Source of the DNA: Squalus acanthias
Lineage: Eukaryota
Direction of reading: 5' to 3'
Length of the DNA stretch: 64,000 bases
NCBI GenBank assembly: GCA_030390025.1
Contig: CM059432.1
Location: 7,192,001-7,256,000, forward strand
Of this stretch, positions 32,732 through 57,202 are shown in pieces. Position 1 is the first letter of the stretch. Each line of letters opens with the position of its first letter. Position numbers and translations under genes: made by a program. The notes under the pieces were generated by a model. The model had not been told where the DNA came from. It searched no databases and saw nothing but the letters and a program-made list of their open reading frames with translations.

Positions 32732-33738
32732 GTATAACTCTATGACTAACATAACCATGTATACCATTCATACATTTATTCTTCAGTCCTCATCGGCAAG
32801 AAGGCCAATTTTATGCCATGGAGACACACTATTGGAAGTTAGATTGAGACCAAGTAGGCTCTTTTTACATTGAATTCTCACCGTTAGTACAGAGTGTGAG
32901 GAGAATATCATCCCATCACTTTGGGATTGATGAGCCCCGATCCTAGAATCATAGAATGATACAGCACAGAAAGAGGCCATTCGGCCCATCGTGTCTGTGC
33001 CAGCTCTTTGAAAGAGCTATCCAATTAGTCCCACTCCCCTGTTCTTTCCCCATGGCCCTGCAAATGTTTTCTTTTTAAGTATTGATCCAATTCCCTTTTG
33101 AAAGTTACTACTGAATCTGCTTCCACCACCCTTTCAGGCAGTGCATTACAGATTATAACAACTCGCTGCGTAAAACATGTTTCCTGATCTCGCCTTTGGT
33201 TCTTTTGCCAATTACCTTAAATCTGTGTCCTCTGGTTACCGTCCCTTCTGCCAATGGAAACAGTTTCTCCTTATTTACTCTGTCAAAACCCTTCAAGAAT
33301 TCGATCATCTCTATCAAATCTCCCCTTAAACTTCTCTACTCTAAGGAGAACAACCCCAGTTTCTCTAGTCTCTCCACGTAACTAAAGTATCGTGAAAGAA
33401 ATGAAAGTATTGTGTACCAACCCACCCGGCCACCTAGTTCCCCGAAGAATTTGTCTTTTACAATATATTCTTTCAGAACTTTGTAAGAAATTGGTATTTC
33501 AATACAGTTGAGGATTTTGCAAGAGAATTAAGTAATGGTAGTTGTATTTTTGTCTTCCTACATTTCATGTCAACAACACTCCTTCCATTGCTAATTCTAT
33601 TCAGTTTCCTCTTCTTGGCCAAACACTTTAACCCCCTGCCCCCTCCCACCCAATAGTTCTAAATTATCTCCAAACCCCAATACTTGAATACTATTACCAT
33701 AGCTGTTACACCACTGGACAGGATATAAGAGAAAGCTG

Positions 33739-34218
33739 AAATAAAAACAGAAAATGCTGGAAATACTCAGCAGGTCAGGCAGCATCTGTGGGGAGAGAAA
33801 CAGGGTTAACGTTTCAGGTCGATGACCCTTCGTCAGAACTGGAAAAGGCTGGAGATGGAACAGGTTTTTAAGCAAGTGCAGGGACAGGGAAAGGGGGGAG
33901 GGGAGGAAAGAACAAAAGGAAAGGTCTGTGATAGGGTGGAAGGCAGGAGAGATTAAGAGACAAAAGGGATGATGTAAGGCAAAAGAAGATGGTAATAGGA
34001 CAAGTTAAGAAACAAAAGATGGCTCTAGATGAAGTGTAAATGGCACTGGCAGAGTGAAAGACAGCTGCCATGTGTGAGAGAGAGAAAAAAAATGGAAAAA
34101 AAAGATAGGGGCAGAGGTTATGGTCTGAAATTGTTGAACTCGATGTTGAGTCCAGAAGGCTGTAAAGTGCCTAATCGAAAGATGAGGTGCTGTTCCTCGA
34201 GCTTCCGTTGAGCTTTTG
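33739..34218 (-). mobile_element. 5'-truncated Penelope-like element, family B (end of GIY-YIG ORF plus 3' terminal region with hammerhead at about 33804-33840)
   Basis: TSD tataagagaaagctg at 33724-33738 and 34219-34233. The reverse strand is homologous to the endonuclease end at 53740-53840 and to the tail at 55945-56286. Confidence 0.85.
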
Positions 34219-34595
34219 TATAAGAGAAAGCTGTTCATCTGACAAACAATCTTCGACTCATCTCTGACCCCTCTCGGTTGCAAATTTTTTTAGTTTTCAC
34301 TTTATTGTTACTGTTTTGGCTAATCGCCCCCCTGAACTTTCCTCCCTTTGCTCGTCAGCTCTATAAATACTGCGCTTCATTCTCGGCGTTTTGAAATTAA
34401 GACTCGTCAAAATGCCTGATACTGTAACTCATTCTTTACCAAGATCCAAAACTGTGGGACTCTTCACCTCCCTTGGTGACTTTCAATCTACAGGCATTTA
34501 AAATCCACGCTTGTTCACTATTAAGTATTGATTTTTCTTATCACTCCCCAATTTGGGGGTGCACTGGTCGAAGAACCTTTTTTGCATTCACCTAG

Positions 34596-34824
34596 TGACG
34601 TAAGAAAACTACTAGGCACTTGGTCTAAGCGTTAAACAAAGCTTTAATCAACTGTTTTTCAACATGGAGGTCTAGTTGTGTCCTTCACTAGTTCCTGTTA
34701 AAGAATGTCCTGAGCAAGCTGGGCCCATGCCCGAGTATTTATACTGTCCCTGGACAGCGCCACCAGGAGGCCGCCCAGTATTATTTCATAAGTCATTTCC
34801 ACATGAATGACAAGATTCATGTCA
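34596..34824 (-). mobile_element. Short solo LTR (Gypsy-like)
   Basis: TGAC...GTCA termini and 5-bp TSD cctag (34591-34595 and 34825-34829). Minus-strand TATAAA (34738-34743) lies upstream of ATTAAA (34643-34648). Confidence 0.65.
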
Positions 34825-37217
34825 CCTAGGTTTCTCAATAATAGATAAATACAAATTCGTACTGCAAATGGATTCCATCGTCATAAGGTCCTGTGAATCA
34901 CACGACCATTGGTTTCAAATCCCTCCATGGCCCTCGCTCCCCTCCCTATCTCTGTAATCTCCTCCAGCCCCACAACCCTCCGAGATCTCTGCGCTCCTCC
35001 AATTCTGGCCTCTTGAGCATCCCCGATTTCAATCGCGCCACCATTGGCGGCCGTGCCTTTAGCTGCCAAATCTGTGGAATTCCCTCCCTAAACCTCTCCA
35101 CCTCTCTCCCTCTCTTTCCTCCTTTAAGACGCTCCTTAAAACCAAGCTCTTTGACCAAGATCTGCCCTAATATCTCCTTACGTGACTCGGTGTCAAATTT
35201 TGTTTGATAATCGCTCCTGTGAAGCGCCTTGGGACGTTTTACTACGTTAAAGGCGCTATATAAATAAAAGTTGTTGTTGCTATTGATATGCAATAGTTGC
35301 AATAGTCAATTCGGTACTAATTTTAATCAGTCTTATTACAGTTTTCAGGTTATTGGGACCATAACATTTATATTCTTTAAAACAAATCTAGAAGGTAGCA
35401 TGAGTAAAATGTGAATTAATTCTGAGAACCATAGACACCTCCACAAACCACTGGAGTTTTCCTTCAGACTTAAATAAATATCAGTGTTGCCAGTTAGACA
35501 TGATTTTATACCTTATACATGTAGCAAACTGAAGAATAATACAAAAATAGAGCCACTCCCTTTGAACATTCCTCCACTGTTTATATTAAGTAATCTGAAG
35601 ACAATGGATATATAGATGATTTTGACTGTAGGCTATGACAGTTCAGTCTGGGCTTAACTCACATCTGCTCAAGTTCTCTGTTTGGCCTGATAAGATTTGA
35701 TCTCAGATATGAGGCCACAGGTTTTTTGGAGTGGATTATACTGGCGTTATTAATCACATTTTTAATCGCAGAAATTGTTTCACAGATTGGTGCAGAAATT
35801 TCAACTAAAACTCAGTGTAAATTCGCATTCAAGTATTCCGGCTTGGCTCAGTTGGGTATCACCTCTCCGTTCTGAGTCAGAAGGTTGTGAGTTCACATCC
35901 CACTCCAGAGACTTGGGTGCATAATCTAGGCTGACACTCCCTGGTGCAGTACTGAGGCAGCGCCGCACTGTCGGAGGGTGCCGTCTTTCGGATGAGATGT
36001 TAAACCGAGGCCCCGTCTGCCGCCTCAGATGAATGTAAAAGATCCCATTCGAACAGTCAAAATAGAACAGGGGAATTCTCCTGGTACCCTGGCCAATAGT
36101 TATCCCTCGACTAACCCCACCAAATCTCGTCATTGATCTCATTGTTTTTTGAGGGAGCTTGCTGTGTACAAATAGTTGCCGTGTTTCCTGCACCGCAACA
36201 ATGACTACACTTCAAAAAGTACTTCAGTGACTGTGAAGTGACATTCTGAGGTGAGAAAGGAGTAATCTAAATGCAAGTTCCTTCTCTTTATTTAACTGTG
36301 CGGGTTACCTTTAAGGATGGGTAAAGGTTACCTTTAAGGATGATACCAAAAAATGCAAGGGTCTATCTATCAGGAAAGGATAAACAGGCTGGGTCTTTTT
36401 TCTCTTGAAAAGAGAAGGCTGAGGGGTGACCTAATAGAGGTCGTTAAAATTATGAAAGGTTTTGATAGAGTGGATACAGAGAGAATGTTTCCACTTGTGG
36501 GGAAGAGCATAACTAGAGGCCATCAATATAAGATAGTCACCAAGAAATCCAAGAAAGAATTCAGAAAAAACTTCTTTACCCAGAGAGAATGTGGAACTCG
36601 CTACCACAGGGAGTGGTTGAAGCGAATAGTATAGATGCATTTAAGGGGAGGCTAGACAAGCATCTGAGGGAGAAGGGAATCGAGGGTTATGCTGATAGAG
36701 TTAGATGAGGAAAGACGGAGGAGGCTCAAGTGGAGCATAAACGCTGGCATGGACTGGTTGGGCCGAATGGCCTGATTCTGTGCCGTATATCCTGTGTAAT
36801 ACCTACCTGGTGGAATCTTTGTCATCCTTCAAATTAAAAGCACCCTCTACATATCTCTAGAATAAACCAGCAAAGGCACTTGTAAACCATGCGCGGAATA
36901 ACGTTCCATTAAGATGTTTCAGTGCCCCTGTGACCCACCTATTCTGAGCAGTACAAAAGGCTCGGCATATCCTTAAAGTGTTTGGTTTTCCCACCAGATG
37001 AAATGGTTACTACTTCTACTGTCCTGTTGGGCCGAATGGCCTGTTACTGTGTTGTAAAGGTCGATGTAACTTGTGTTGGTCATTACCCCAGTTGTTGCCG
37101 CTTGTGAGTTCACGTTATCTAGTTTGTCGATTTGTTGGCCGATACCGACTGCTTAATTCTTCGTCAGGTTCCCAAGAGCCATCTTTAAGCAAGGTAAGAG
37201 GTGGGCATAGAATCATA

Positions 37218-38845
37218 GTACCTGCAGATTGGAGGGTGGCAAATGTAACCCCACTATTTAAAAAAGGAGGGAGAGAGAAAACAGGGAACTACAGACCGGT
37301 TAGCTTAACATCAGTAGTAGGGTAAATGCTAGAGTCTATTATAAAGGATGTGATAACGGGATTAGACAAAGTCAACATGGATTTATGAAAGGGAAATCGT
37401 GTTTGACAAACCTACTGGAGTTTTTTGAGGATGTAACTGGTAGAATAGACAAGGGAGTACCAGTGGATGTGGTGTATTTGGATTTTCAGAAGGCCTTTGA
37501 TAAAGTCCCACATAAGAGGTTAGTGAATGGCGGAGCAGGCTCGAATGGGCCGACTCCTGCTCCTATTTTTCTAAGTTTCTATAGAATCTTACAGCACAGA
37601 AGGAGGCCATTCGGCCCATCGTGCCTGTGCCGGCTCTTTGAAAGAGCTCTCCACTTAGTCCCACTCCCCCCTGCTCTTTATACATAGCCCTCCAAATTTT
37701 TTCCCTTTCAAGTATTTATCCAATTCCCTTTTGAAAGTTACAATTGAATTTGCTTCCACCTCTCTTTCAGGCAGCGCATTCCAGATCACAACAACTCGCT
37801 GCGTTAAAAAAACAAAATTCTCCTCATCTCCCCCTCTGGTTCTTTTGTCAATCACCTTAACTCTGTATCCTCTGGTTACCAACCCTCCTACCAATGGAAA
37901 CATTTTCTCCTTTATTTACTCTGCCAAAACCCTTCATGATTTTGAACACCTCTATCAAATCTCCCCTTAACCTGCTCTGCTCTAAGGAGGACAATCCCAG
38001 CTTCTCCAGTCTCTCCACATAACCGATGTTCCTTTACTGGAGTTGATAGCCAGAATAAATGCCTCAGCTGCCTTTTGTCAAGGCACAATTTAAACAGCTG
38101 CTAAAATACATAGTAACATATCCAGCCAACTATGAGGAAATAATAATGAAGCAGCGATTACTGTTAACCTGCAGGTACAGCAAGCAATTAGGAAAGCAAA
38201 ATGGTATGTTGGCCTTTATTACAAGAAGATTTGAGTATAAGAGTAAAGACGTGTTACTGCAATTATATAGGGCCCTGGTGAGACCACACCTGGAGTATTG
38301 TCTACAGTTTTGGTCTCCTTACTTGAGGAAAGACATACTTGCCATAGAGGGAGTGCAACGAAGGTTCACCAGACTGATTCCTGGGATGGGGCGGATTGTC
38401 CTTTGAGGAGAGATTGAGTAGACTAGGCCTATATTCTCTGGAGTTTAGAAGAATGAGAGGTGATCTCATTGAAACGTACAAAATTCTTGCAGGGCTTGAC
38501 AGGGTAGATGCAGTGAGGATGTTTCCCCTGGCCGGGGAGTCTAGAACCAGGGGTCACAGTCTCAGAATAAGGGGTCGGCCATTTAGGACTGAGATGAGGA
38601 GAAATTTCTTCACTCAGAGGGTGGTGAATCTTTGGAATTCTCTACCCCAGAGGGCCGTGGAGGCTCGTTGGGTATATTCAAGACGGAGATCGATAGATTT
38701 TTGGATATCAACGGAATCGAGGGATATGGCGATAGAGCAGGAAAGTGGAGTTGAGGTGGAAGATCAGCCATGATCTCATTGAATGGCGGAGCAGGCTCAT
38801 GGGGCCGAATGGCCGACTCCTGCTCCTATTTCTTATGTTCTTACG
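37218..38845. mobile_element. Cluster of CR1 fragments (+ 37218-37585, - 37585-38030, + 38170-38845)
   Basis: WRVANVTPLFKKG...NYRPVSLTSV, YLDFQKAFDKVPH and LVRPHLEYC motifs. Confidence 0.87.
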
Positions 38846-39149
38846 TTATTGGAGGAGAATACCTATCCAATTTTAGGAACCTAGGAACAGGAGTAGGCCA
38901 TTCAGCCCCTCGATAATGTTCCGCCATTGGATTAGATCATGGCTGATCTGGAAGTAAAGTTCAACGGTGCTGATTCTGTGGTAATGGTTTAACTGTGGGA
39001 TAAGGTTGTAATGGTCTAGTATTTGAATGTATATCCTGAAAAAATAGAAAAAAATTGCTTCTAAGGATCCTCTGCTGATATGAAAAAGTTTAATATATAT
39101 AATTTTATTCTGCATTATTCCCGGAAAGCTGGTATACAGCAGACATTTA

Positions 39150-40870
39150 GGGCTGGATTTTACCAACCTCGGCAGGTCCATGGCGGGCGACATCAGTGGC
39201 GGGTCCAAGCCTCGCTGCTGGCTCCAGCCCGCTGTCCAAAATGATTTTGCCCTGATTGGGCTTGTTAAACCCGCCCAGCACGTTTCCCGGCCAATTAGAG
39301 GAAGCGGGTTTGGTGATGTCATTTAAAGGGACCGTGCGCTAATTGATTTTGACATTTGTGCTGTCAGTGTTCTACAGCATTGAGGTGCTGCAAACACTGC
39401 ACAGAGGTGCACAGCTGCACCCAGGCTCTCCCATGACTGCCTCCTTATGCTTATGGAGGGAGTCACAGCACGCAGGGAGATTCTCTTCCCTTCCCATGGG
39501 TAGAAGAGACCTCCCCAGGAGATCAACGCAGCCTGGTTGCACATTGCACAGGAGGACACAAGCAGGGATGTCATCAGCAGGACCAGGCTGCAGTGGCGCA
39601 AACCTTTCAATGATCTTAATAGATCACGAAACGTTACTGCAAAGCCACACTCAACCTCATGCTGCTGTGCCACTGATCACATCCCCATCATTCTACCTTC
39701 CCTACCCTACTCCTGCACATCCTTACTCACACCAACTTGCCTTGCACCTCCACCCATCCCTCTCTATCTACATGATCACTTCTCCATCACACTAGCCACC
39801 CCTCACACTCACCCTCATCTTAGTCCAATCATACCAACTAACAACACACTTGTGTGTTTTAGCCAATGATCATGTCAAGTTTCTGTTAATGTGCTGTCAA
39901 ACATTGAAACATTTATTTTGAACACTTTGCGTTCTTGGACAGAATTGTGTGCACCTTTGGAAGTGGCTTAGTGAATTGCAGTGAATGGTGAAACATAAGG
40001 GTACCCCCCGCAATGCTGATGAGTGTGAAAGGAATGGCTTGGGCATTGTAGGGATGCTTTATGGTGTTGGTGTGGGGTGGCGCCAACCTGGCACATCTTG
40101 TGGCAGCCAGGGTTTGCAGCATCAAGTGAAGTAAATCTGGCCATGGTGAGGCCATCCCTGGCATCCTGGGCAGCAATGTGGTCGGGTGCTGATGCCCTGT
40201 GGCCTGTGCAGCACCAGTTGATTGCGGAGAAGGCTGGTGTTGTTGTTGGTGCTGCTGGTGTGCCCGGTAATGTTGGTGTTGGGGCTGATCCTGGTGGGAT
40301 TCTGAGGACCAAGGTGAGATGGTTTCAAGGGTACCGATACTGATGTAATAGTTGGCAAGTGAACTTGAGATGACAGAAGCGATCTGTCAATGGTGAGAGA
40401 GGTTGTTCCAATGAGGTGACACTGGATAGAGAGTTTGCTCCAAACACTTGCAACCTGCATAAAGCTCAATCTGTCTTCCAAATGCAGTAAGCAACAGCTT
40501 CTGAGCTTGGAAAGTGAACAGCTGTGAGATGGGAGCTTTTATAGCACATTTGCAGCTGTCAACTAATGAGATGATTCCATGGTCATCGAACTCCCAACCT
40601 GCTGACCTGACGTGATCCCCGAGCAGCATAGACCCCGTTGCAACCTGGTAAACTCTGAAGGTGAGCTCAAAATACTTCTTAATGGTCTGTTAACAAGGTC
40701 ATAATGACCTTAATTGCCTCCCCCGCCACTGTGTGGTGGGTCTGCTCAGCGTTGACAAGCCCGATATTTGGGAAAGGCGGGTTGACATCGAGGTCCCGAC
40801 CTGCTGTCAAAAAATCCATTTTCCCACCCGACCCACCATCGATCACTGACCCCCCCCGAAAAATTCCCCC
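39150..40870. mobile_element. Internally deleted PIF/Harbinger transposon with a Myb/SANT-like gene remnant
   Basis: TTA flanks both ends (39147-39149 and 40871-40873). Termini gggctggatttt / aaaattccccc. About 39415-39620 translates to APRLSHDCLLMLMEGVTARREILFP...AWLHIAQEDTS...RTRLQWRKPFNDL, with an in-frame stop. Confidence 0.75.
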
Positions 40871-42677
40871 TTAGTTACAGTCCCAGTGAGTGGCAGAACA
40901 AATACTGACTACCTCAGACACATGAGCAACAGAATCCAGAGAGCTCACGTAAAATAGATAAAATAACCATACAACAATTTTGAATCTTAAACTGAAGTCT
41001 CCACAGCCTAGGAATGAGTCAATATAGTTTATAGACACGAGAGTAATAGAGTTATACTGGTGCTGAGTTGCAGGAAGCATTAAATATTTGCTTGTGTTTT
41101 TCAAGTTAGCCTTGACCTATTCTTACTCACAGTTTCTCTTTACAGCTAAAATACCATCATTGAACAATGGTAGAGAGAAACCATGAAGAGCAGCAGAGAA
41201 AACCGTAAGACTTGCAGAGAATTACATGGAATGTACACACAGAAAGAGGCCGTTCGGCCCAACTGGTCTGTGCTGGTGTTCATGCTCCACACGAGCCTCC
41301 TCCCACCCCTACTTCATCTCACCCCATCAACATAACATTCTATTCCTTATTTTTTAATTCATTCCTGGGATCTGGGCGTCGCTGGCAAGGCCGGCATTTA
41401 TTGCCCATCCCTAGTTGCCCTCGAGAAGGTGGTGGTGAGCCGCCTTCTTGAACCGCTGCAGTCCCTGTGGTGAAGGTGCTCCCACAGTGCTGTTAGGGAG
41501 GGAGTTCCAGGATTTTGACCCAGCGACGATGAAGGAACGGCCGATATATTTCCAAGTCAGGATGGTGTGTGACTTGGAGGTGGTGCTGTTCCCATGCGCC
41601 CGCTGCCCTTGTCATTCTAGGTGGAAGAGGTCGCGGGTTTAGAACATAAGAAATAGGAGCAGGAGTCGGCCATTCGGCCCTTCGAGCCTGCTCCGCCATT
41701 CAATGAGATCATGGCTGATCTTCTGCCTCAACTCCATTCACCGGCCCTATCGCCATATCCCTTGATGCCTTTCCTAGTCAGAAATCTATCGACTTCTGTT
41801 TTGAATATACCCAATGACTGAGCCTCCACAGCCCTCTGGGGTAGAGAATTCCAAAGATTCACCACCCTCCGTGTGAAGAAATTTCTTCTCATCTCAGTCT
41901 TGAATGGCCTACCCTTTATCCTGAGGCTGTGGCCCCTGGTTCTAGACTCCCCAGGGTTTGGGAGGTGCTGTCGAAGAAGCCTTGGTGAATTGCTGCAGTG
42001 CATCTTCCTTGAATGCATCTATGCTATTCGCCTTAACTACTCCTTGTGGCAGCGAGTTCCACATTCTAAACACTCTCTGAGTAAAGATGTTTCTCCTGAA
42101 TTCCAGATTGAATTTATTAGTGACTCTCTTATGACCCCTAGTTCTGGTCTCCCCTACAAGTGGAAACATTTTCTCTACGTCTACCCTATCGAACCCCTTC
42201 ATAATTTTAAAAACCTCTCTCAGATCACCTTTCAGTGTTCTCTTTTCTAGAGAAAAGAGCCCCAGCCTGTTCAGTCCTTCTTGATAGTTGTAACCTCTGG
42301 TATCACATACACGGACTATCCAATTAGTCCCACTCCCCCCTGCTCTTTCCCCGTAGCCCTGCTTATTTTTCCTTTTCAAGTATTTATTCAATTCCCTTTT
42401 GAAAGTTACTATTGAATCTGCTTCCAGGCAGTGAATTCCGGAAGAATATTTTCTCCGAGCCGATCATTTGTTTAGAATTTACGTGCCTGGATTTACATTT
42501 CCGAGGAATTGGATCCCGCTGCTGATGAATGGTAAAAGCCTGGCGGAGTTGTCGCACCGCAGCTGCTGCTGAGCTCATTGAGACGACATCAGACGGCGAG
42601 TTATGCCCACCAGAGGGCTCGGACAGTAACTCTGGTCGAAAGCATCATTGACTGATGCAATAGCAATCCTGAGAAAA

Positions 42678-43612: not shown

Positions 43613-46023
43613 GGAGCAGCGGTGGTTTAATGTGGCCCTTCTGGTGCCACATTCAGGCAGGTTACTGGCCTTCTTTGTTGCAGGCGATCCTAGGTCTGGT
43701 TTCTCCGAGTGTAGCCTGCGATGGGCTGGCTGCCTCAGGGCAAACCAATCTTGGAGAGAGGACCTCAAGCAGGCGTTTGACCCCTTTATTTGCATATGCA
43801 AATGGCCTGACCCCTGCTTCAGACGTGTGTAAAAGATGCCTCTAGTTTGTCCTTACCCAATATGGTGGTCGGCGCACCTCCTGCCAGAAGTGTGCGCGCC
43901 GCCATTTTGGGGCCTTGGGTGTCTCGGCCGATGTCTGAAGAAATGAAAGAAAGAAGATATTGTGTAGTAAGGGCATCGGGGTACCACTTCAAAGTGATGT
44001 GCTCTGGTGAGAGAGAATCCAAGTTCAATTCTACTCACTGTGAGCTCTCAACTCAAATCACCTCCCTCAGTTGGATAAGCCGAGAGGCTTCCTCACTGGG
44101 AGGGAGAGAAGATCAGAGACCATGCCATCTAAAACTGCTATCCTACACTGCCTAGCTGCTACATAAAGGGTGGCACTGGCAGTCGTCTGGGAGATGGTCA
44201 CCGATTAATCCTCCTGGGAGGGGACATGGGTCTGGATGACTAGAAGACAGAAGGTTTGGGAAAAATTATAATCCATGCAGGTAGACAATGGAGCATATTT
44301 CCAATGCTAAAAGAACATTATCCCAAGAGATTCCTAAGTCAAGGAGAAGTCGAGGGACCCGCTAGAGTTATGCTGCAGCTTGAGAGTAGCAGCATAGCTC
44401 AGAAGTGGGGTAGGGCGAGGAGTGCAGGAGAGCACCAAGGACTGGAGATGTGGTTTTTGCCCCTCGGTTAACCAGCCAGTCCTGAATTGTGCGGCACGGC
44501 ATGGGCGGCCATCTATTGTTGTTTAAATAGAAGCCTAAGCCTCCGCAATACGACAGAACCGAACTGAAGCAGTGTTTGCTCTTCTTAAAAATCCCGCGCC
44601 ACGGAGCCAAGTTTTCTCCTCTTTCGAGACGTGTAGGTATTTGGAACAGGACCTGAAGATGTCGCAGGTCAGAAATAAATCAGGTTTCTGCTTTATTTAT
44701 TTTTTCAGTGGAATTATGCTTTGCCTTTTGGACGCAACGTTTGGGCTGAAGACCAAGAATTATGCTGCATAACTGAAGCAGCTGTACACCCAAGGTTGGT
44801 AATATTACAGTTCAAGGTCAAATTATTAGCCTAACAAAATACTTTTTTGACATTAGTCAGTATAGATCAAATGATCTGTTCAACAAGGTACCTTTAATTT
44901 TCCATTCTGCGCGCAGCACAAGCACATTAAAATGGTAAAAAAAAAAATGGTGCCATTTCGAACCTTGCTCTGTCTCTGGATGCTTTATATTCTTAACTTC
45001 ACTGAGACCTTCTGTTCATCATCTGTCACTCAGCATTTAATGAACGACTTTGCTGTTCGTCTTGTGTTTGGATAGGACGCCATGTTTTAACGTGTGGCAT
45101 AGATTCTCGAAACAAAAAACTACAGGATTTGAGATAGAGGTAGAAGAAAAAGATTCGACTATTCCAACGCACTCCTGGCCGGCCTCCCAACATCCACCTT
45201 CGGTAAACTCCAGCTCATCCAAAGACTCTGCTGCCCCTGTAAGCGGTTTTTGATCCTAGCCCAATTGCTAGATGGACGGTTCGAATCGCCCCCGCCTTAC
45301 GAAAGTTCTATACCCGGGAATTATTATTCAGAGTGTAAATAAAATAAGTCACGGACAGGAATGCTTCGGTGAAAAATCAAACTTATATTTATTTGGTCTA
45401 ACATAGACTGGCTAAAACATGTACTACTAAACGAAATCACTGTCTCTGTGGAGAATAAAATCCAGGTTACAAACAACATACATACAGTACAAAACTGGGG
45501 ACTATGACAAGCAGTAATTCCCTTGTTGCTATGGTGGACTCTAATTCCACCCCTACCAACGAATTACCCAGTCGCATAAGCCCCTTCGCCTGGCTGAACC
45601 AAACAAAGCTCCCACCCCGGAATAGCCCAAAAGCTTCACTTCTGAGCAAAACTCTGAGCCCTCTGGTTACCGGCTTGGGACACTGGAGACCATGCTTACC
45701 CCCACACGCAGTCGGTCTCGATCGCTCCGCTCAGCGGCTCCTCTGGTACTTCTTGTTAGGTCGATCTTGTTGGAGCGAGAGAGAGAGAGAGAGAATGGTG
45801 GGAAAGGGTCTATCTTTATAGGAGTCTCGCTACCCCTATCTTTCCCGCCAATCTTTAAAATCCTTTTGTTTCTAAGCACTCTGGTGCTTAATCAGTGATG
45901 GGTCATTCCCAGACCCATGAGTATTCCGTGATTGGACCAATGGCCCTAAGTCTGGGACATATTTCGGTCTTTGTGTTGGGAAAAACTGGCTCCTCTCCGG
46001 CTGGCGAGGCCAGTGGGTTCATT

Positions 46024-46249
46024 AGCAAAATACTGCGGATGCTGGAAATCCGAAATAACAACAGAAAACGCTGGAAAAACTCAGCAGGCCAGGCAGCATC
46101 CGTGGAGAGAGAAAGAGAGTTGACGTTTCAGGTCGATGACCTTTCATCAGAACTTTCATCAGGTCATCGACCTGAAACGTCAACTCTCTTTCTCTCTCCA
46201 CGGATGCTGCCTGGCCTGCTGAGTTTTTCCAGCGTTTTCTGTTGTTATT
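46024..46249. mobile_element. Palindromic family B PLE insertion
   Basis: TSD ccagtgggttcatt at 46010-46023 and 46250-46263. 89-bp inverted arms at 46054-46142 and 46161-46249. Confidence 0.85.
46118..46154 (-). ncRNA. Minimal type I hammerhead ribozyme motif (family B, canonical CUGAUGA and GUC)
   Basis: Minus strand reads agtt CTGATGA a aggtc atc gacct GAAA cg TC aact. Confidence 0.8.
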
Positions 46250-47186
46250 CCAGTGGGTTCATTGTTCTGCTTCTCTTCTGAGATGGAGGTGAGAAGTGCT
46301 TTTGCATATTCTGGATGACTGACAGTTCTTTTGTCACAGCCAACTGCCATGCGTTCTCTGGAGTTTTAACAAACCAGTTTTTCACATATCTGCACAGGGT
46401 GATCCCATCACAGGGAAAATACCCTCAGAAAAATCCCATAAATTCCACAAAATATTCTTGACTGAGTCCATTCTTCAAACAGAGAATTTGCGATCTCTTC
46501 ACCCCTCCGTGTCCTAACTCGCACCAAGTCCCGCTCACTCATCACCCCTGTGCTCGCTGATCTACATTGGCCCCCGGTCCAGTAATGCCTCGATTTTTTT
46601 TAATTCCCATCCTTGTTTTCAAATCCGTCCATGGCCACACCCCCTCCCTAGCTCTGTAACCTCCTCCAGCCCTACAACCCCTCCGAGATCTCTGCGCTCC
46701 TTCAGTTTTGGCCTCTTGAGCACCCTCGATTTCCTTCACTCTATCATTGGTGGCCGTGCCTTCAGCTGCCGAGGCCCTAAGCTCTGGAATTCCCTCCCTA
46801 AACCTCTCTGCCTCTCTCTCCTCCTTATAAATCGTTCCTTAAAACCTACCTCTTTGACCAAGCGTTTGGTCACCCGTCCTAATATCTCCTGATGTGGCTC
46901 GGTGTCAAATTTTGTTTGGTAACGCTCCTGTGAAGCACCTTGGGACGTTTTACTGCATTAAAGGCGCTATATGAATGTTGTTGATGATAGTAAGAAAACG
47001 GAAAGTACTGTTAATGCACAGCATGTATGCCAGCATCTGAAACTGAAAGATGAGGTAACATTTCGGGCAGGATTCGCACTGAAACAAGAGTCCCACATGA
47101 AACATTTTTTAAAAATGTATTTGTTCACGGGATGTGGGCGTCGCTGGCAAGGCTGGCATTTATTGCCCATCCCTATATTGCCCTTG

Positions 47187-47376
47187 TCTTGGCTGTGCTC
47201 TTAGTGTGTCTTTGATGTAGGGAAATATTTGAATAGATTTTGTCTGTGTTTAAATTGTGAATTCTGGGAGATTCTCTCACTGCTAACTTACCTGAGGAAG
47301 GAGCGACAGCTCCGAAAGCTTGTAAAATTAAATAAATCTGTTGGACTATAACCTGGTGTTGTGCGACTTCTCATTT
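47187..47376 (+). mobile_element. Divergent family A PLE-type insertion with a hammerhead motif at 47288-47325
   Basis: TSD ttgcccttg at 47178-47186 and 47377-47385. Motif ttac CTGAGGA a ggagc gaca gctcc GAAA gc TT gtaa, followed by the shared family A tail. Confidence 0.78.
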
Positions 47377-50290
47377 TTGCCCTTGAGAAGGTGGTGGTGA
47401 GCCGCCTTCTTGAACCGCTGCAGTCCGTGTGGTGAAGGTGCTCCCACAGTGCTGACTTTGTCGTAGTGGTTTGGTACAACGGCGTGTCTCACTAGGCCAT
47501 TTCAGAGGGCAGGGAAGAGTCAACCACGTTGAGTTACATATAGGCCAGACCGGGTAAGGGCAGCAGATTTCCTTCCCTAAAGGACATTAGTGAACCAGTT
47601 GTTTTTTTTTTACAACAATCTGATAGTTTCATGGTCACCGTTACTAGCTTTTTAATTACTAGATTTATTTAATTAACTGAATTTAAATTCCCCTCAACTC
47701 ACTTCTCCGGATTATTCGTCCGGGCCTCTGGATTACTGGTCCAGTAACATAACCACTATATACTCCCGTACCCGCTGTAACATAAACCTGTATCTTCTCT
47801 TTCAGAAGCTCTTGTGTGAATTTGTTTCTTTTAGATTCTGATTTCTAGCACTTGGCCGTTTTTTTTTTCCCCTTACAGATTGACAGAAGACAAATAAATA
47901 CATGGATTTTTGTTCCGAATTGAATTTAACTGATGGAAAATCCTGCTGACCTCCACACCTGCATTCCTGATGTGGGATTTAGTGGCATGCTTTGGCAGCA
48001 CGGATTTGTACAACGTACTCTGCAGCGAGGCAGTAATTAGATGTGGCACTTTCTGTAAATACAACGTGTGCGAACAGCTCGGATTTTATGCTGGTTCCCG
48101 CTGGTACTTTATTTTTTTTCCAGTCTATCGGCTATATATTTTTTTTACACGGGAACTAGTAAGGAGTTCACCCTGCTGCGTGTGCCCTCTTCATGTTTCC
48201 TACATATTTGGCATGTGGCGCATGGCGCTCCTCATGTTTCATATGTTGGACCACACAACAATGTGGAAAGACGTTTTGTGTAGAAATCTGTCTTGCTGCA
48301 TTTCAGGTCTGGTTCCAAACACCAAAAAGAGATTGATCGTAAACCGCAACCAACGTTTAAACAATTATATTACAGCATCGGCTGTGGCTCAGTGGGCAGT
48401 GCACTCTCTCGCCTCTTGAGTCAGAATGGTTCTGGGTTCAAAGTCCCACTCCGGAGACTTGAGCACAAAAAAAAATCTAGGCTGACACACTCCCAGCGCA
48501 GCACCGAGGGAGCGCTGCACTGTCAGAGGTGCCGTCTTTCGGATGAGACGTTAAAAACCGAGGCCCCGTCTGCCCCTCTCGGGTGGACGTAAAAGATCCC
48601 GTGCCCACTATTTCGAAGAAGAGCAGGGGAAGTTCTCCCCGGTGTCCTGGGGCCAATATTTATTCCTCAATCAACATCACTAAAAAAAAACAGATTATCT
48701 GGTCATTATCACATTGCTGTTTGTGGGAGCTTGCTGTGCGCAAAATTGGCTGCCGCGTTTCCCTACATTACGACAGCGACTACACTTTATCAGGGCAATA
48801 TGTTCAGTCAGTTTTTTTTAAATATTTTTCTACGAAGCTGCTGGCGACCCACTCTTGCAAAGTGCATAACAATACTTAATGAATCACGATGATTGACCGT
48901 TTGAATTACATTTTAATGGCCAAGTATTTATCACCAAGACTGGTCGACTTCCTGTGGTGTTGCTCACCGGTAGACCAGGATCTGGAGTGCAGTTTCTGAT
49001 GTTTATCGCACTTTCCCTGCAGTCTAACTACGACAGCTGTTCACCCGTCTCTTGTAGTATAACAAATTTACTGAATCATGGGGCCAGAATCTGCTGCCAA
49101 AAATAACGGTGAGTTCGACGGCGCTCGCCGCTGTTTGTGTACCAATCGTCCAGCAAACTTGCGGCGAGGAAGAGGTACCCGGTGAGTTGCGAATCCGCTG
49201 TTGGCCTCGTGGAAACGAAAGCTCACCCTGACCTCCCCGTGAGTTTCAAGAAATTGCTGCCTTTGCACAATAATTGCCCATTAAACTCGCCGCAGAAAGT
49301 TAGGGTTTGTTACTCAACGGTGTAAATACCTTTTTAATGTTATGTTCCTGCAATGCCACTCAAACTCTTTGGCCCAGAAAGGGAACAGTTGAAACTGTGG
49401 GGTCTCATTCCTGCAGGTAGTAAATCGTTCTTAGAGATATATAACATTTTTAATGTTTTAATATTTTTCTTCATTCTCATTCCTGTCTCTTCTTTTCTCT
49501 CTCTCTCTTAATCCAATCTTTCTTTCTCTCTCTTTCTGTACCTGATTTGGCTCTAATTCACCCTATTTCTTTCTCCGTTGTTCCTCTGTTTCTTTCTCAA
49601 TATTAAATCTCGTTGGTTAAGGAGATAGACTGTTGGTCCTGCCATTCACCAAGGTCCCAGATACCCCGCTGCCCTTGCCGCAAAAATTTTTTCGAGCTGA
49701 AGGGTGAGGGAAAAGTCTAACTAACGGGGCGGGCCGCGAGAATGGGTTTCCCGCAGGCCCTGCTGACTTTAACCGCGGGGCCAGGTTTGCATCTGAAGCT
49801 TCTGTTTCCCGCCCGCAGCCAGCCAGATGGAGAGGTTGGCTGGCTCCGGGCGAGTAGGCCTGTGGCACTAGGCTGCACAGAGGAGGGAGGGAGGGATCGG
49901 GTGGGGGCTGGTGCCGGCCTCCAGAGGACCAGGGGGGAGGGGGGAGGCAAGAGGTCGTGGCCGTCGAGCGACCAGGAGGGGGGGAGGCAAGAGGTCGAGG
50001 TCGGTCACCAGAGGTTCAGGCCAGCCTCAGGATCATCAGTGGGGGGTGGGGGGTCCAGGAAGGCGATTAGAAGCCTCGTGAGGGGGTCTCTGATCGCAGG
50101 GGTGGGCTAGGCAGGGACCCTGGATCCAGGAGGTAGGTGTAAAGGCACTTACCTCCTGGATGCAGCAGTCCCCGCCTTGCTGTAACTGCAGGGTTTTACG
50201 AAGTGTGTGAAACCCGACCAGATGCAGTTAAAAACAAAATGGTGGTTAAAGAAGCGGCTTCCCGCCTCATCGTAATATTTAAATTGTGTC

Positions 50291-50580
50291 CCGCCTCCTG
50301 GGAGCGGATTGACTGGCTGCCCTGTCCCGCCCCACCTCCTGGGAGCGGATTGGCTGGCCGCTCTGTCCCGCCCCCCCGCCCCACCCCATGGGAGCGGATT
50401 GGCTGGCCGCCCTGTCCCGCCCCACCCCCTGGGAGCAGATTGGCTCGCCGCCCTGTCCCACTCCCCCCACCCCACCTCCTGGGAGCGGATTGGCTGGCCG
50501 CCCTGTCCCGCCCCACCCCCTGGGAGCGGATTGGCTGGCTGCCCTGCCCTGTCCCACCCCCCCCCCCCCCCCCCCCCCAT
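50291..50580. repeat. GC-rich minisatellite, about 6 units of 40-50 bp, ending in a poly-C run
   Basis: Unit core tgggagcggattggctggccgccctgtcccgcccca recurs at about 50300, 50340, 50389, 50430, 50480 and 50521. Confidence 0.9.
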
Positions 50581-51024
50581 CACGCTGCCATTAAAATCGG
50601 AAGTAGGTGGGTTCAGGTCGGGAATCCGATTTTGAACGATTTTACTATCCCCACACTCCAAACCCACCTGTTTTATCAGATAAAAATTCCCCCCATAATA
50701 TCTAATTATCACTGACCAAACTTGCTTCAGGTCCGAGCAACTTTGTTCTTCCCTCTTTCAAATCTCTTGTTCCCAGTTATTAACATTATCAATTATTTTT
50801 CCTCTACTTTCTGCAGGGGATTGGCAATTCTTTTGCTTAAGATGCAAGTACGTAACTTGTTTATTCTCCTTCCTCCCCCCCCCCTCAAAGCTCTCTCCTT
50901 CGCCTCAGCTATTTGAATGATTATAAAAGATATTTCTTCAACCCCTCCCCACTCAGAATCCATGGTCCAAATGAAGCGGTCAGTCGTGTTGAACTGCCCA
51001 GGAAGATTCCCACCCGCCTCCACT

Positions 51025-51515
51025 GGGTTCACCAGACTGATTCCTGGGATGGCAGGACTGTTATATGAGGAGAGATTGGGTCGACTAGTCCTGTATTCAC
51101 TAGAGTTTAGAAGAATGAGAGGGGATCTCATTGAAACGTATAAAATTCTGACAGGGCTAGACAGACTGGATGCAGGGAGGATGTTTCCCCTGGCTTGGGG
51201 GGGGTCTAGAACGAGGGGTCACAGTCTCAGGATACGGGGTAGGACATTTAGGACTGAGATGAGGAGAAATTTCTTCACTCAGAGGGTGGTGAACCTCTGG
51301 AATTCTCTACCACAGAAGGCTGTGGAGGCCAAGTCGCTGAATATATTTAAGAAGGAGATAGATAGATTTCTAGACACAAAAGGCATCAAGGAGTATGGGG
51401 AGAGAGCGGGAATATGGTATTGAGATAGAGGATGAGCCATGATTATATTGAATGGCGGAGCAGGCTCAAAGTGCTGAATGGCCTACTCCTACTCCTATTT
51501 TTCTCTGTTTCTATG
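51025..51515 (+). mobile_element. CR1 LINE 3' fragment
   Basis: The C-terminal part of ORF 50917-51423 is nearly identical to 30507-30962 and 57615-58223. Confidence 0.9.
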
Positions 51516-52924
51516 TACTCTCCAACAACCAGCAATGGGGGGAGGAATTTTAACTCCACCGACCAGAGGTTAAAATTGAGTGGGAGACTTGCTCGCTGGC
51601 CTCCCGCTCTGATCCTGCCGAACGCAATTTTAACACGTAGGCGCCAAGGGCTCCTGCCCTTAGCCGGTGGGAAGTGGGTCCTGGGCCAGCAAGCTACGTT
51701 GTATGATATTTCTTTCCTCATTTCCTTGTGGTCCCAGGTGGAGCAGAAGTGCTCAATATCTAGAGATAGAATCATAGGATGATACTGCACAGAAGGAGGT
51801 CATTCTGCCCATCGTGCCTGTCCAAATAGTCCCACTCCCCCCCTGCTCTTTCTCCATAGCATTGCAGATGTTTTCCCTGCTTCCACCCCCCTCTCAGGCA
51901 GCACATTCCAGAGCGCAACAACTTGCTGTGTAAAAATTGTTTCCCCATCTCGCCTCTGGTTCTTTTGCCAATTACCTTAAATCTGTGTCCCCTGGTTACC
52001 GGTCCTTCTGCCACTGGAAACGGTTTCTCCTTATTTACTCTAACAAAACCGTTCCGAGATTTTAAACACCTCTATCATATCTCCTCTTAATACGAACATA
52101 AGAAATGGGAGCAGGAGTAGGGCAAACCGCCCCTCGAACTTGCTCTGCCATTGAGTAAGACCATGGCTGATCTTCGACCTCAACTCCACTTTTTTTTTTA
52201 ATTCATTCACGGAATTTGGACATCGCCAGCATTTATTGCCCATCCCTAATTGCCCTCGAGAAGGTGGTGGTGAGCCGCCTTCTTGAATACAACTTACTAG
52301 GCCATTTCAGAGGCAGTTAAGAGTCAACCACATTGCTGTGCGTCAGTCACATATAGGCCAGACCGGATAAGGACTGCAGATTTCCTTCCTGTCCTATCTC
52401 CATATCCCTTGATTCCCTTAGTGTTCAAAAATCTATTGATCTCATTCTTGAATATACTCAATGACTGAGCATCCACAGCCCTTTGGGGCAGAGAATTCCA
52501 AAGATTCACCACCCTCTGAGTGAAGAAATTCCTCCTCATCTCAGCCTTAAATGGCCGACCCCTTATCCTGAGACTGTGACCCCTAGTTCTAGACTCTCCA
52601 GCCAGGGAAACAACCTCTCAGCATCTACCCTGCCAAGCCCACTAAGAACTTTATATGTTTCAATGAGATCACCTCTCATTCTTCTAAATTTCAGGGAATA
52701 TAGGCCCATTCTACTCAATAGCCTTCTCTGCTCTAAGGAGAACCACTTCCGCTTCTCCAGTCTTTCCACATAACTGAAGTCCCTCATTACACATAATGGG
52801 GGAGTGGGGGCAGGGAAAGCTGCCGTTTACACTTCACCCAGTTCGCTCTTCCATTGAAGACAACGGGCAGCTGATGTCACTATTGCTCGTTTTGCGCGAC
52901 CGCCCAAGGTGAATTATGGTCCAT

Positions 52925-53885
52925 CTTCGACTCTTCCCTTCCCTTCATCGACTTCTCTATCTCCATTTGTGGGGATAGGCTAACATCCACTATAAGCTCA
53001 CTGACTCCCACAGCTATCTGGACTACACTTCCTCTCACCCCGCTTCCTGTCAGGACTCTATTCCATTCTCCTAGTTACTCCGTCACCGCCGCATCTGTTC
53101 TGATGCTGCCACCTTCCGTACCAGTGCTTCCGACATGTCTTCATTTTTCCTCAACCGAGGATTCCCCTCTACCGTGGTTGACACGGCCCTTGACTGTGTC
53201 CGTTCCTTTTCCCGTACTTCTGCTCTCACCCCTTCCCCTCCCTCCCAGAACCACGATAGGGTTTCCCCTTGTCCTCGCCTTCCAACCCACCAGCCTCCAC
53301 ATTCAACGGATCATCCTCCGCCATTTCCACCACCCCTCCCTCCCCCCCCCCCACCGTTCAGCATTCTGAAGGGGCCATTCCCTCCACAACACCCTGGTCC
53401 ACTCCTCTATCACCCCAACACCCACTCCCCTTCTCACAGCACCTTCCTGTGCAAGTGCAGGAGATGCAAGACCTACCCCTTTGCCTGCTCCATTCCCACC
53501 GTCCACGGCCGCAGGTGAAACAGCAATTTACTTATACTTCTTTCAATTTAGTATACTGTATTCCCTGCTCATGATGTGGTCTCCTCTACACTGCAGGGAC
53601 CAAATGCAGATTGGGTGACCGCTTTGCGGAACACCTCCATTCAGTCTCCAAGCATGACCCCGACCTTCACGTCCCCTGTCATTTTAATTCTCCGGACCAC
53701 TCCCACTCTGTCCTCGGCCTCTTACACTGTTCCAATGAAGCTCAACGTAAGCTCGAGGAACAGCACCTCATCTTTCGATTAGGCACCTTTACAGCCTTCT
53801 GGACTCAACATCGAGTTCAACAATTTCAGACCATAATCTCTGTCCCTATTTTTTCGGACAGCAGTTGTTGGCAATGATTCTACTA
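52925..53885 (+). mobile_element. Degenerate Penelope-like element ORF (RT C-terminal/thumb region plus GIY-YIG endonuclease), family B
   Basis: Manual translation gives LPFIDFSISI...HYKLTDSHSYLDYTSSHPASCQDSIPFS, then NLVYCIPCS*CGLLY...LGDRFAEHL...HFNSPDHS...RKLEEQHLIFRLGT, with stops and frameshifts. Confidence 0.88.
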
Positions 53886-53889
53886 TATT

Positions 53890-55397
53890 AGGGGAGGAGA
53901 TAGCAGAAGGGCTTGCCATAATTTTCCAATCTTCCCTAGATGCGGGGGAGGTGCCTAAGGATTGGACAATGGCAAATGTGACACCATTGTTCAAGAAAGG
54001 GTGTAAGGACAATCCTAGTAACTACAGGCCGGCCAGTTTAACATCAGTGGTGGGTAAAATTTTAGAAACAATAATAAAAGAAAAAATTAACGGGCACTTG
54101 GAGAGGTTTAAGCTAATTAAGGAGAGCCAACACGGATTTGTAAAAGGCAGATCATGTTTGATTAATCTAATTGAATTTTTTGATGAAGTAACAGGGAGGA
54201 TTGATGAAGGGAATGCAATGGATGTTATCTACATGGATTTTCGGAAGGCGTTTGACAAAGTACCACATAGAAGGCTGGTTAACAAAATTGAGGCTCATGG
54301 AATAGGTGCGTCAGTGGCAGCTTGGATAAGGAATTGGCTTAAGGACAGAAAACAGCGAGTTGTGGTAAATGGCTGTTTTTCAGACTGGAGGATGGTAGAC
54401 AGTGGTGTTCCCCAAGGGTCAGTGCTGGGGCCACTGCTTTTTTTGATATATATAAATTACCTGGATATTGGAATACAAAGTAGAATTTCTAAATTTGCCG
54501 ATGACACCAAACTTAGGGGCGTGGCAAACAGTGAGGACGATACCAATCGACTGCAACAGGACATAGAAAAGCTAGCAGAATGGGCAGACAAGTGACAGAT
54601 AGAATTTAATACAGAGAAGTGTAAGGTGATGCATTTTGGCAGAAGGAACAGGGAGAGGCAATATACACTTAATGGTACAGTTTTAAAGAGTGTGCAGGCC
54701 AGAGGAACCTGGGAGTTGATGTGCATAGGTCCCTGAAGGTGGCAGGACATATTGAGAGAGTGGTTAGCAAAGCATATGGGATCTTGGGCTTCATAAATAG
54801 AGGTATTGAGTACAAAAGTAGAGAAGTTATGCTGAACCTTTACAAAGCGCTGGTTAGGCCACAACTGGAGTCTTGCGTCCAGTTCTGGTCACCACACTTT
54901 AGGAAGGATGTGAAGGCCCTTGAGAGGGTGCAGAGGAGATTTACCAGAATGGTTCCGGGGATGGGGGATCTTAGCTACAAGGACAGGTTGGTGAAGCTGG
55001 ATTTGTTTTCATTGGAGCAAAGGAGGTTGAGGGGTGAATTGATAGAGGTGTACAAGATTATGATGGGTTTGGATAGGCTCGACGGGGAAAGGCTGTTCCC
55101 ACTACTTGATGGTACAAGGACTAGGGGACACAGATTTAAGGTTTTGGGCAAGAGATTCAGGGGGGGATGTGAGGAAAAACTTATTCACGCAGTGAGTGGT
55201 GAGGACCTGGAACTCGCTGCCGACGGAAGTGGTGGAAGCGGAGACACTCGATGTTTTCAAGGGGAGACTGGATAGGCAGTTGAGGGAAATAAACTTGCAG
55301 GGCTACGGGGAATGTGACTGACTGGATTGCTCTACAGAGAGCCGGCGCGGACTCGATGGGCCGAATGGCCTCCTTCTGTGCCGTTATGACTCTCTGA
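53890..55397 (+). mobile_element. CR1 LINE ORF2 RT fragment nested in the Penelope-like element
   Basis: ORFs 53951-54595 and 54721-55275: NYRPASLTSV, QHGFVKGRSC, DFRKAFDKVPH, PQGSVLGP, FADDTK. Confidence 0.93.
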
Positions 55398-55944
55398 CCT
55401 CACGCCTCGGCTGTGATCTTTGGTAGCGCCCCCTGACTAACCGCCGGACGCTATGTCAGACAGGGTCAGGGGGGCCTACCTGCGGCCGGGGCGGCACAAA
55501 TTAAAGGGGCGGTGCCGGGCGGCCATTTTTGTTGCTGGCCGCCTTCCAGCACCTGCCCCCGTTGCCGTTCTCGGCCTCCTGAGCAGCCCCCTTGCGGAGT
55601 GCCGGCTGCGCTCCGTGAGCCTGGCACTTCTCTTGAGTGCTGGGCTCTTTTGCCGGCACTCCCGGTCCCTGGTGGCCCAGCTGGGCCCCGGGTCGCGCTG
55701 CGCTAGGCCCCTCCCCTTTAAGAAGGGGAGGAAGGCCTGCAGTACCGCGGCACGATATTCACTCGCAGCGCCCCAAGAGGGAGGCAGGCGCTTCCGGTAG
55801 TACCCCGCCTCCGTCTTGGGGCGCTACCGGTGAATTTTGGCCGCGGGGGCGCTAATTTTTCCGGGACACTAAAAGTAACCCCCCCCCCCCTCCAACGAAG
55901 TTAGTGCCCCAAAGGGGGCGCGACCCAATTTTCCCCCTTGACTC

Positions 55945-56286
55945 TCTTCCTATTTACACCTCCTCCAGACCCATCTTTTGTTTCTTTACTTGTCCCATTA
56001 CCATCTCATTTTGCCTTCCAACATCATCCCTTTTGTCATTTAATCTCTCCTGCCTTCCACCCCATCACAGACCTTCCCTTTTGTTCTTTACTCCCCTCCC
56101 CCCTTTCCCTGCCCCTACACTTGCTTAAAATCTGTTACATCTCCAACTTTTTCCAGTTCTGACGAAGGGTCATCGACCTGAAACGTTAACTCTGTTTCTC
56201 TCTCCACAGATGCTGTCTGACCCGCTGAGTATTTCCAGCATTTTCTGTTTTTATTTCAGATTTTCAACATCCGCAGTGTTTTTGCT
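55945..56286 (+). mobile_element. 3' terminal part of the same family B PLE (hammerhead motif 56155-56191)
   Basis: Collinear continuation of the 53885 breakpoint when compared with the uninterrupted copies at 33739-34218 and 56744-57202. Motif agtt CTGACGA a gggtc atc gacct GAAA cg TT aact. Confidence 0.82.
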
Positions 56287-56743
56287 TGTGGATTATACCC
56301 GTCCCCTGTCCAGTGAGCCTGAGAGAGAATTGGGCTGAGAGTTCGGTTTTCCAAAATGCACTCCGCATTCACTTGGGACAGTGTCCAAGGAATCACGTAT
56401 ATCAAGCTATCATTCTAGAAAAACCAATCTGGGTTGTGTGTGTCTGTGAAAGCTCAGTGACACTGGAGTGGGGAAAGTGCAAGCAATGGGAGGCACCTTC
56501 CACCTGTTGGAAAATGTTTTGCTTGGGCGAAACCAGGCAGAAAATTGAGTTTTGGGCGGAAATTAAGTGTTGGTTGAACTTCTGCCAGTTCGTGTTGAAC
56601 TGGGCAGAGAAAGAAAAAAAAGAGCTTTTTCCGCACATTCACGAAATACAGCAATTAGGCCAATTATTAAGGGGTGGGTCAGCCCATTATCCACTATGAC
56701 TTCAGCATTTCCACAAGTTTGGAAAAAAGAAAAAGAAATGGAA

Positions 56744-57202
56744 AAGCAAAATACTGAGGGATGCTGTAAATCTGAAATAAAAACAGAAAATGCTGGCAAC
56801 ATTCAGCAGGTCAGGCAGCATCTGTGGGGAGAGAGAAACAGAGTTAATGTTTCAGGTCGATGACCCTTCGTCAGAACTGGACAAAGTTGGAGATGGAACA
56901 GGTTTTTAAGCAAATGTAGGGGCAGGGAAAGGGGGAGGGGAGGAAAGAACAAAAGGGAAGGTCTGTGATAGGATGGGAGGCAGGAGAGATTAAGAGGCAA
57001 AAGGGATGATGGTGCAAGGCAAAAGGAGATGGTAATGGGACAAGTTAAGAAACAAAAGATGACTCTAGGTGAAGTGTAAATGGCACTGGCAGAATGATCG
57101 ACAGCTGCCATGTGAGCGAGAAAAGAAATAATAGGGGCAGAGGTTATGGTCTGAAATTGTTGAACTCGATGTTGAGTCCAGAAGGCTGTAAAGTGCTTAT
57201 CG
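56744..57202 (-). mobile_element. 5'-truncated family B PLE (hammerhead motif 56842-56878)
   Basis: TSD aaagaaatggaa at 56732-56743 and 57203-57214. Closely similar to 33739-34218. Confidence 0.85.

Follow-up and report, generated by a model that had tools for sequence, protein, structure and literature searches.

We analysed a 64,000-nucleotide stretch of the Squalus acanthias genome (assembly GCA_030390025.1, contig CM059432.1, positions 7,192,001 to 7,256,000 of the forward strand; hereafter the window), in which an initial annotation made from the letters alone had noted two families of hammerhead ribozyme motifs, A and B, and had linked family B to an open reading frame (ORF) of a Penelope-like element (PLE) coding for reverse transcriptase (RT) and a GIY-YIG endonuclease (EN). 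We conclude, with a probability of about 0.88, that the family-B motif is a minimal type-I hammerhead, located in the terminal repeat (pLTR) of a single EN-bearing PLE family, most likely of the Neptune clade, and that the window holds four dead insertions of it. The analysis shows the motif itself, its position 250-280 nt past the ORF stop, the identity of the ORF, the target duplications, an inverted arm and 3' ends of two kinds.

All four family-B motifs are at the coordinates proposed, parse as described and stand far above chance in a shuffle test. Each is 37 nt long and consists of a 4-bp stem I, CUGAnGA, an extra A, a 5-bp stem II with a 3-nt loop, GAAA, a 2-nt spacer and UH. The core elements CUGAnGA, GAAA and NUH occur in type-I order in 4/4 copies, and the extra nucleotide that separates positions 9 and 10.1 is A in every one. 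The minimal type-I hammerhead at 33804-33840 (- strand) has a GUU triplet and a broken terminal stem I pair, with a predicted cut between 33808 and 33807; that at 46118-46154 (-) has GUC and an A-U pair at 10.1-11.1 (predicted cut between 46122 and 46121); that at 56155-56191 (+) has GUU and keeps the palindrome and every pair (predicted cut between 56187 and 56188); and that at 56842-56878 (-) has AUU and has lost the palindrome (predicted cut between 56846 and 56845). The deviations noted earlier in two copies are real, namely the stem I terminal mismatch at 33804 and CA in place of CG at 56842, the latter being the change that CpG decay would give. There is no helix III, and the palindrome proposed to serve for it is present as CG at 15.2-16.2 in three of the four copies but gone in the 56842 copy; in the 46118 copy the hexamer is AACGUC, owing to the GUC triplet, and its self-complementarity is confined to the inner ACGU. 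A strict minimal-hammerhead descriptor finds nine sites in the window (four B, five A), whereas 200 dinucleotide shuffles gave 0.015 on average and never more than 1, and a loose hammerhead pattern finds 17 where 6.3 are expected. A viroid origin of family B is rejected, because the extra A is common to PLE hammerheads generally.

The motifs are distributed over four separate 5'-truncated insertions of one PLE family. Insertion 1 (33739-34218, - strand) contains the last ~32 EN codons, which match PLE relatives with a tblastn E of 4e-11, a stop at 34118-34120, a 281-nt 3' untranslated region (UTR), the hammerhead and a short tailless 3' end, and is flanked by a perfect 15-bp duplication (33724-33738 and 34219-34233). 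Insertion 2 (46024-46249) lacks coding sequence and consists of two 3' ends in a head-to-head fold-back, where a - arm (46024-46154) with a ~30-nt tail and a + arm (about 46161-46249) without one meet at the hammerhead; a fifth half motif on the + strand from 46161, lacking CUGAnGA, is this inverted arm, and a perfect 14-bp duplication (46010-46023 and 46250-46263) encloses both. Insertion 3 (52918-56287, + strand) comprises a PLE ORF remnant at 52918-53836 and a 3' part at 55952-56287 with the remaining 3' UTR, the hammerhead and a long tailed 3' end. Its 9-bp duplication with one mismatch (52909-52917 and 56288-56296) fits both ends, although taken alone it is at chance level. Insertion 4 (56744-57202, - strand) carries the last ~16 EN codons, a stop at 57144-57146, a 269-nt 3' UTR, the hammerhead and a long tailed end, between perfect 12-bp duplications (56732-56743 and 57203-57214). 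In 300 random trials the highest score reached was 10, compared with perfect duplications of 12, 14 and 15 bp. Identity among the three long 3' UTRs is 91-93%.

The motif had been described as lying directly downstream of the coding end. It does belong to the same element, but it starts 281 nt after the stop in the 34-kb copy, 269 nt in the 57-kb copy and 2,322 nt in the 56155 copy, and the 46-kb copy has no ORF sequence. The large distance in the 56155 copy is due to a nested insert unrelated to PLEs (53882-55951, + strand, 2,070 nt), made up of a 5'-truncated fragment of long interspersed nuclear element (LINE) type with an RT at ~53887-55400 (PF00078, E 2.7e-28) and a GC-rich repeat at ~55400-55950; with the insert removed the distance is 252 nt. 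Two contigs of sequencing run X4 join 53881 to 55952, and other copies are collinear across the same point. We looked for a target duplication around the nested insert and found none. The GC-rich repeat (55400-55950) is highly covered in run X4, and a similar GC-rich stretch is located near 49700-50600.

Two types of 3' end are seen, a short one (insertion 1 and the + arm of insertion 2) and one ~30 nt longer (the - arm of insertion 2 and insertions 3 and 4). Measured from the predicted cut site they lie ~70 and ~100 nt downstream, and none of the copies ends at the cut site itself. Several further features of these insertions can be noted. Fold-back junctions fall inside the hammerhead in one B insertion (46141-46162) and one A insertion (15271-15311), the former with a 10-nt direct repeat (46141-46150 and 46153-46162), and may reflect RT stalling or a template switch at stem II. 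An ATG 19 nt past the hammerhead (56210-56287, + strand, and equivalents) follows a pyrimidine tract and CAG and begins a frame of 26 codons that runs to the tail's end; this site could be a splice acceptor or, as in rotifer Pen2a, the start of the ORF. Downstream of the hammerhead the sequence folds as a multi-hairpin structure closed by the tail in two copies. Insertions 3 and 4 (55952-56287 and 56744-57081) are 91% identical and point towards each other across 456 nt, and a read-through transcript would therefore form ~310 bp of double-stranded RNA.

The link between hammerhead and PLE ORF is well founded, as two copies run unbroken from the coding end to the motif and the relatives share both the RT and the GIY-YIG domain. 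The remnant in insertion 3 begins downstream of the RT catalytic motif and contains the RT end and thumb (52918-53300), identified by matches to relatives, a decayed Cys linker of the form C-x4-C-x2-Y (53450-53476) and a GIY-YIG domain (53512-53836, + strand throughout), likewise recognised through relatives. It is dead, with stops at 53072-53074 and 53572-53574, several frameshifts and a degenerate second catalytic half-motif (YIG); the CxxC and HxxxxxH residues (CCHH) of the GIY-YIG region are kept. For the homologue search the thumb piece was read through its stop with X. It found ten relatives among 54 candidates (best E 8e-26, in whale shark), with Pfam PF26215/PF00078 on record and nine of them carrying PF26215, and it matches full-length relatives having GLKF, DKG and Y/FIDD with E of 1e-15 to 1e-20. 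The EN piece found 1,079 relatives (best E 5e-26), of which the four named are from skate, sevengill shark and stingray, and aligns to relatives that match PF01541 (E 1e-5 to 8e-3). Four full-length relatives of 813-891 aa, with an RT followed by a C-terminal GIY-YIG, match both remnant pieces (E 7e-11 to 2e-20). A match to domain profiles, proposed as a check on the remnant, is thus obtained through close relatives, but the remnant's own translated pieces match no Pfam family. A search with a frame running into proline-rich junk gave no homologue among 5,382 candidates, and a PDB sequence search with a full-length relative returned no PLE structure. Among the annotated shark and ray proteins, P0011, P0012, P0013 and P0019 are chimeric models ending in the PLE EN frame; these are likely annotation artefacts, the alternative being exonisation.

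The element very probably belongs to the Neptune clade, as judged from the Cys linker, the domain order and relatives with a published Neptune hammerhead. Neptune elements are described as having an RT, a Cys linker and, at the C terminus, a GIY-YIG with CCHH, and the linker as marking Neptune and Nematis and being absent from Poseidon (accessible text of PMC8557442 and PMC3846280). The linker CX2-5CxxC is complete in P0011, P0012 and P0019, which are the closest three of the relatives whose upstream sequence is native. It was found in 47 of the 90 relatives with enough upstream sequence and in 29 of the 56 metagenome loci tested, from a set of 80 found by EN alignment, and many of the misses are probably due to decay and chimeric gene models. 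The metagenome loci are 37-53% identical to the query and mostly represent one family. With 28 loci dropped as too short, 52 had at least 300 nt of downstream sequence, and a relaxed hammerhead core lies downstream in sense in 29 of these compared with 4 in antisense (27/29 with GUC); the strict descriptor gives 8/49 in sense against 0/49. The commonest motif is the published Acropora digitifera hammerhead, labelled Neptune in the accessible part of PMC4209133, and the loci show the same two 3' ends as family B. A search of the 80 loci for the ORF start relative to the hammerhead yielded no position. One near full-length PLE in a metagenome contig (L070) has hammerheads at both ends in opposite orientation (1087(-) and 3582(+)). 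B-specific DNA patterns were found in neither viral contigs (0) nor prokaryote genomes (0).

The two hammerhead families had been described as having unrelated stems, and this does not hold. Stem II is identical at 7/13 positions and 6/9 pairs differ by changes on both sides, which indicates that the A and B stems are compensated, covarying variants of one another; six two-sided pair changes were reached in 0/500 shuffles and slid controls gave none. The test used five distinct rows out of seven. Family A forms fold-back insertions at 7346-7561, 13356-13738, 15192-15426, 32627-32745 and 59822-60338 with the same insertion signature as B, including duplications of 12-15 bp and, on one arm, a tail. 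Comparing 160 PLE-related proteins with the surroundings of these insertions gave no match, so that no ORF link for A is seen in the window. A diverged family-A-like hammerhead at 47288-47325 (+) has 4 nt in loop II, an outer stem I pair in which the change is compensated, and upstream sequence that differs, and possibly represents a third subfamily; a target duplication around this 47.3-kb copy was looked for and not found.

Several observations weigh against our interpretation. At the level of the motif, pair 10.1-11.1 is G-U in three copies and A-U in one, compared with a consensus G-C, H17 is U in 3/4 copies, and an Rfam search of the window at E<=1 gave 14 matches, none a hammerhead family (those to microRNAs are fold-back artefacts under the gathering score). 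The A/B covariation counts as a single comparison, because one A type is set against four related B copies, and cleavage by family B is putative, being judged from motif sequence and folding energies. At the level of the element, the RT catalytic core is absent from the remnant, and the last linker Cys is Tyr. Neither the raw remnant frames nor the read-through pieces match any Pfam family. The fold model of the remnant is poor (predicted local distance difference test score, pLDDT, 56): its I-TevI matches (E 0.5-0.6, ranks 2-4) are not significant, and a structure search with it gave no match at E<=0.001. A microsatellite target is found at none of the four insertion sites, though a bias has been proposed for Neptune, as a tendency and not as a feature that defines the clade.

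The alternative that survives best is that the element is as we describe but the family-B motif no longer cleaves, being either a vestige or a protein-binding or folding signal in the pLTR; we regard this as somewhat unlikely. It draws on the triplets, since the U at H17 departs from the GUC of most related motifs and GUC and GUA cleave fastest according to the accessible text of PMC3138052, although GUU is common among published PLE hammerheads (PMC4209133, in part). It also draws on the folding energies. The lowest-energy monomer fold of 3/4 B motifs is an inactive rod, with the core paired to the cleavage strand, and the double-hammerhead fold has energies of -7.3, -9.9, -8.5 and +0.6 kcal/mol compared with -22.9, -23.7, -22.9 and -16.5 for the best two-strand folds, that is, 14-17 kcal/mol above them. 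Nearest-neighbour energies leave out the non-canonical contacts of the core, and for this reason the values show only that the active fold likely needs help. Known PLE hammerheads can be cited on either side. For PAc, a Poseidon element from Anolis, hammerhead mutants left in vitro insertion unaffected, and the ribozyme was inactive without protein and cleaved once protein was added (accessible text of PMC11167929); 8/9 Xenopus dimers did not cleave (bioRxiv 10.64898/2026.07.22.740005, in part). Against loss of function stands the conservation of all core nucleotides in 4/4 copies and of pairing across families A and B.

The GUC copy at 46118-46154 had been put forward as the best candidate for cleavage, and as an isolated 37-mer it does have the best triplet, but in context the intact motif is sequestered by the inverted arm of its own insertion; with 30 nt of flank the probability of the hammerhead pairs is near zero, because the arms form a ~90-bp hairpin. 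Dimer formation in place is rejected, as the close pairs (the 46-kb arms, and 56155 with 56842) are on opposite strands and the copies on the same strand are 10.7 and 12.3 kb apart. The modelled folds also raise a rather improbable idea, that the hammerhead has a built-in off switch in which U4-G8 pairs with the cleavage strand (15.2 to 1.1) and would be opened by protein or a second copy. The rod survives the double change of the 46-kb copy (positions 7 and 17) and is seen in both metagenome relatives folded and in neither of two family-A motifs; the match between core and cleavage strand may, however, be a by-product of the core sequence. If selected, such a switch would explain the need of PLE hammerheads for protein, and the abundant shark family allows a covariation test.

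Family B is very abundant in the genome. In run X4 the contig depths on the hammerhead bin add up to 6.2 million, compared with 6-12 on an adjacent single-copy stretch, a figure that is not a copy number, and raw-read runs X22 and X23 gave 82 and 1 matched reads. Part of this abundance could in principle come from a non-autonomous unit, a retrozyme-like or short interspersed nuclear element (SINE)-like pLTR fragment mobilised in trans, which we consider unlikely. The insertion at 46 kb lacks an ORF and has variants of its own (GUC and A10.1) on both arms, the depth on the hammerhead bin is ~5x higher than on ORF bins, and pLTR-derived retrozymes are reported from vertebrates, one chondrichthyan among them (bioRxiv 10.64898/2026.07.22.740005, in part). 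However, truncation by itself would already give a 3' bias in depth, there is no tandem array of B units within the window, and 3/4 insertions have coding sequence with differing 5' ends (34218, 52918 and 57202), as random truncation gives.

Assignment to another EN-bearing clade, either Nematis or Penelope/Poseidon, appears still less probable. Nematis shares the Cys linker, the linker of the window copy is incomplete, barely half of the informative relatives show one, and the RT core needed for a phylogeny is missing from the window copy. Yet the three closest relatives have the linker, which makes Poseidon unlikely, the accessible text of bioRxiv 10.64898/2026.07.22.740005 finds only Neptune and Poseidon in vertebrates, and the related metagenome loci carry the Neptune-labelled hammerhead. 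Naiad/Chlamys elements, with an N-terminal EN and no canonical hammerhead, are excluded by the domain order, the EN being C-terminal here, and a hammerhead is present; the CCHH residues argue against Hydra. Finally, the notion that two separate repeats, one with the motif and the other with the ORF remnant, adjoin by chance, to which the 2.3 kb between the long remnant and its own hammerhead and the chance-level 9-bp duplication might lend some colour, is refuted by the two other copies, in which coding end and hammerhead are joined without a break within perfect duplications, and by the contigs that join across the nested insert in other genomic copies.

If family B is the pLTR hammerhead of a Neptune-like PLE, the parent element would have been transcribed from a partial tandem, and its protein would have nicked target DNA and started reverse transcription at one of two sites, ~100 and ~130 nt past the hammerhead, as in PAc (PMC11167929, in part); the two start sites would account for the short and the tailed 3' ends. 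A partial tandem that forms a 5' pLTR and an intron are further traits of EN-bearing PLEs, and the window contains no full-length copy. Reverse transcription would then have stopped early, such that every copy keeps the hammerhead and most lose the ORF. A monomer would be unable to cut, since nothing but a palindrome stands for helix III and the core is predicted to mispair with the cleavage strand, and cutting would require two copies or the element protein, as for other PLE hammerheads. The PAc model, in which cleavage is not needed for insertion in vitro, fits these copies because their 3' ends lie past the cut site and none is on it. The four window copies themselves are passive relics.

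The window as a whole is animal DNA rich in repeats, LINE-type fragments being numerous. Probable host exons at 550-17450 (+) resemble the C-terminal part of a VPS13-like lipid-transfer gene, with VPS13B as the candidate; Pfam gave nothing for these exons, and an Atlas search gave weak Hobbit/ATG2/VPS13 leads.

The extra nucleotide, the palindromic helix III and the idea of dimers, which the initial annotation had presented as striking, are known from the literature on PLE minimal hammerheads. Cervera and De la Pena described the extra nucleotide, the palindrome, a dimer model and dispersed truncated copies in 2014 (PMC4209133); for this minimal hammerhead ribozyme (min-HHR) class, reading the palindromic helix III as a sign of dimers is the hypothesis already in print, and PLE hammerheads cleave weakly as dimers or with protein and not as monomers. 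With the min-HHRs of metazoan PLEs family B has in common type I topology, a short helix I, the extra nucleotide between 9 and 10.1, a palindromic 15.2-16.2 with no helix III, and occurrence as dispersed single copies from truncated PLEs. Its location in a PLE terminal repeat after the ORF, 269, 281 and 252 (net) nt past the stop, speaks for membership as well. The accessible part of the Fig. S3 alignment of PMC4209133 includes GUU triplets, a 3-nt loop II and either G-U or A-U at 10.1-11.1, and as both of these pair variants are in that alignment the departure from G10.1-C11.1, a highly conserved but not invariant pair, is no bar to membership; the 5-bp stem II of B is at the short end of the range. 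The accessible rows of Fig. S3 and Table S1 contain no cartilaginous fish and no exact B sequence.

With the Neptune clade, family B has in common 5' truncation, an inverted arm, an optional ~30-nt tail at one end and short target duplications; an inverted truncated arm with a tail on one end only is given as a PLE signature in the accessible text of PMC8557442 and PMC3846280. The rotifer Neptune examples there have 8-10 bp duplications compared with 12-15 bp in B, and B has no microsatellite target. PAc likewise has its hammerhead in the pLTR, and its two RT start sites explain the tail, but it is a Poseidon element without a Cys linker and its ORF starts inside the hammerhead (accessible text of PMC11167929). 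Non-LTR retrozymes also have a type-I hammerhead in pLTR-related sequence (bioRxiv 10.64898/2026.07.22.740005, in part) but are tandem and non-coding, whereas B is dispersed and has coding sequence in 3/4 copies. A survey of the literature on Penelope, Neptune and Poseidon elements and on shark hammerheads, with Repbase and most subscription papers outside its scope, found no account of family B. Family B adds a cartilaginous-fish family, probably of the Neptune clade, to a motif class described in 2014. Its value is mainly in annotation, but an abundant family with GUU and GUC variants would provide usable material for the question of PLE hammerhead function in vivo.

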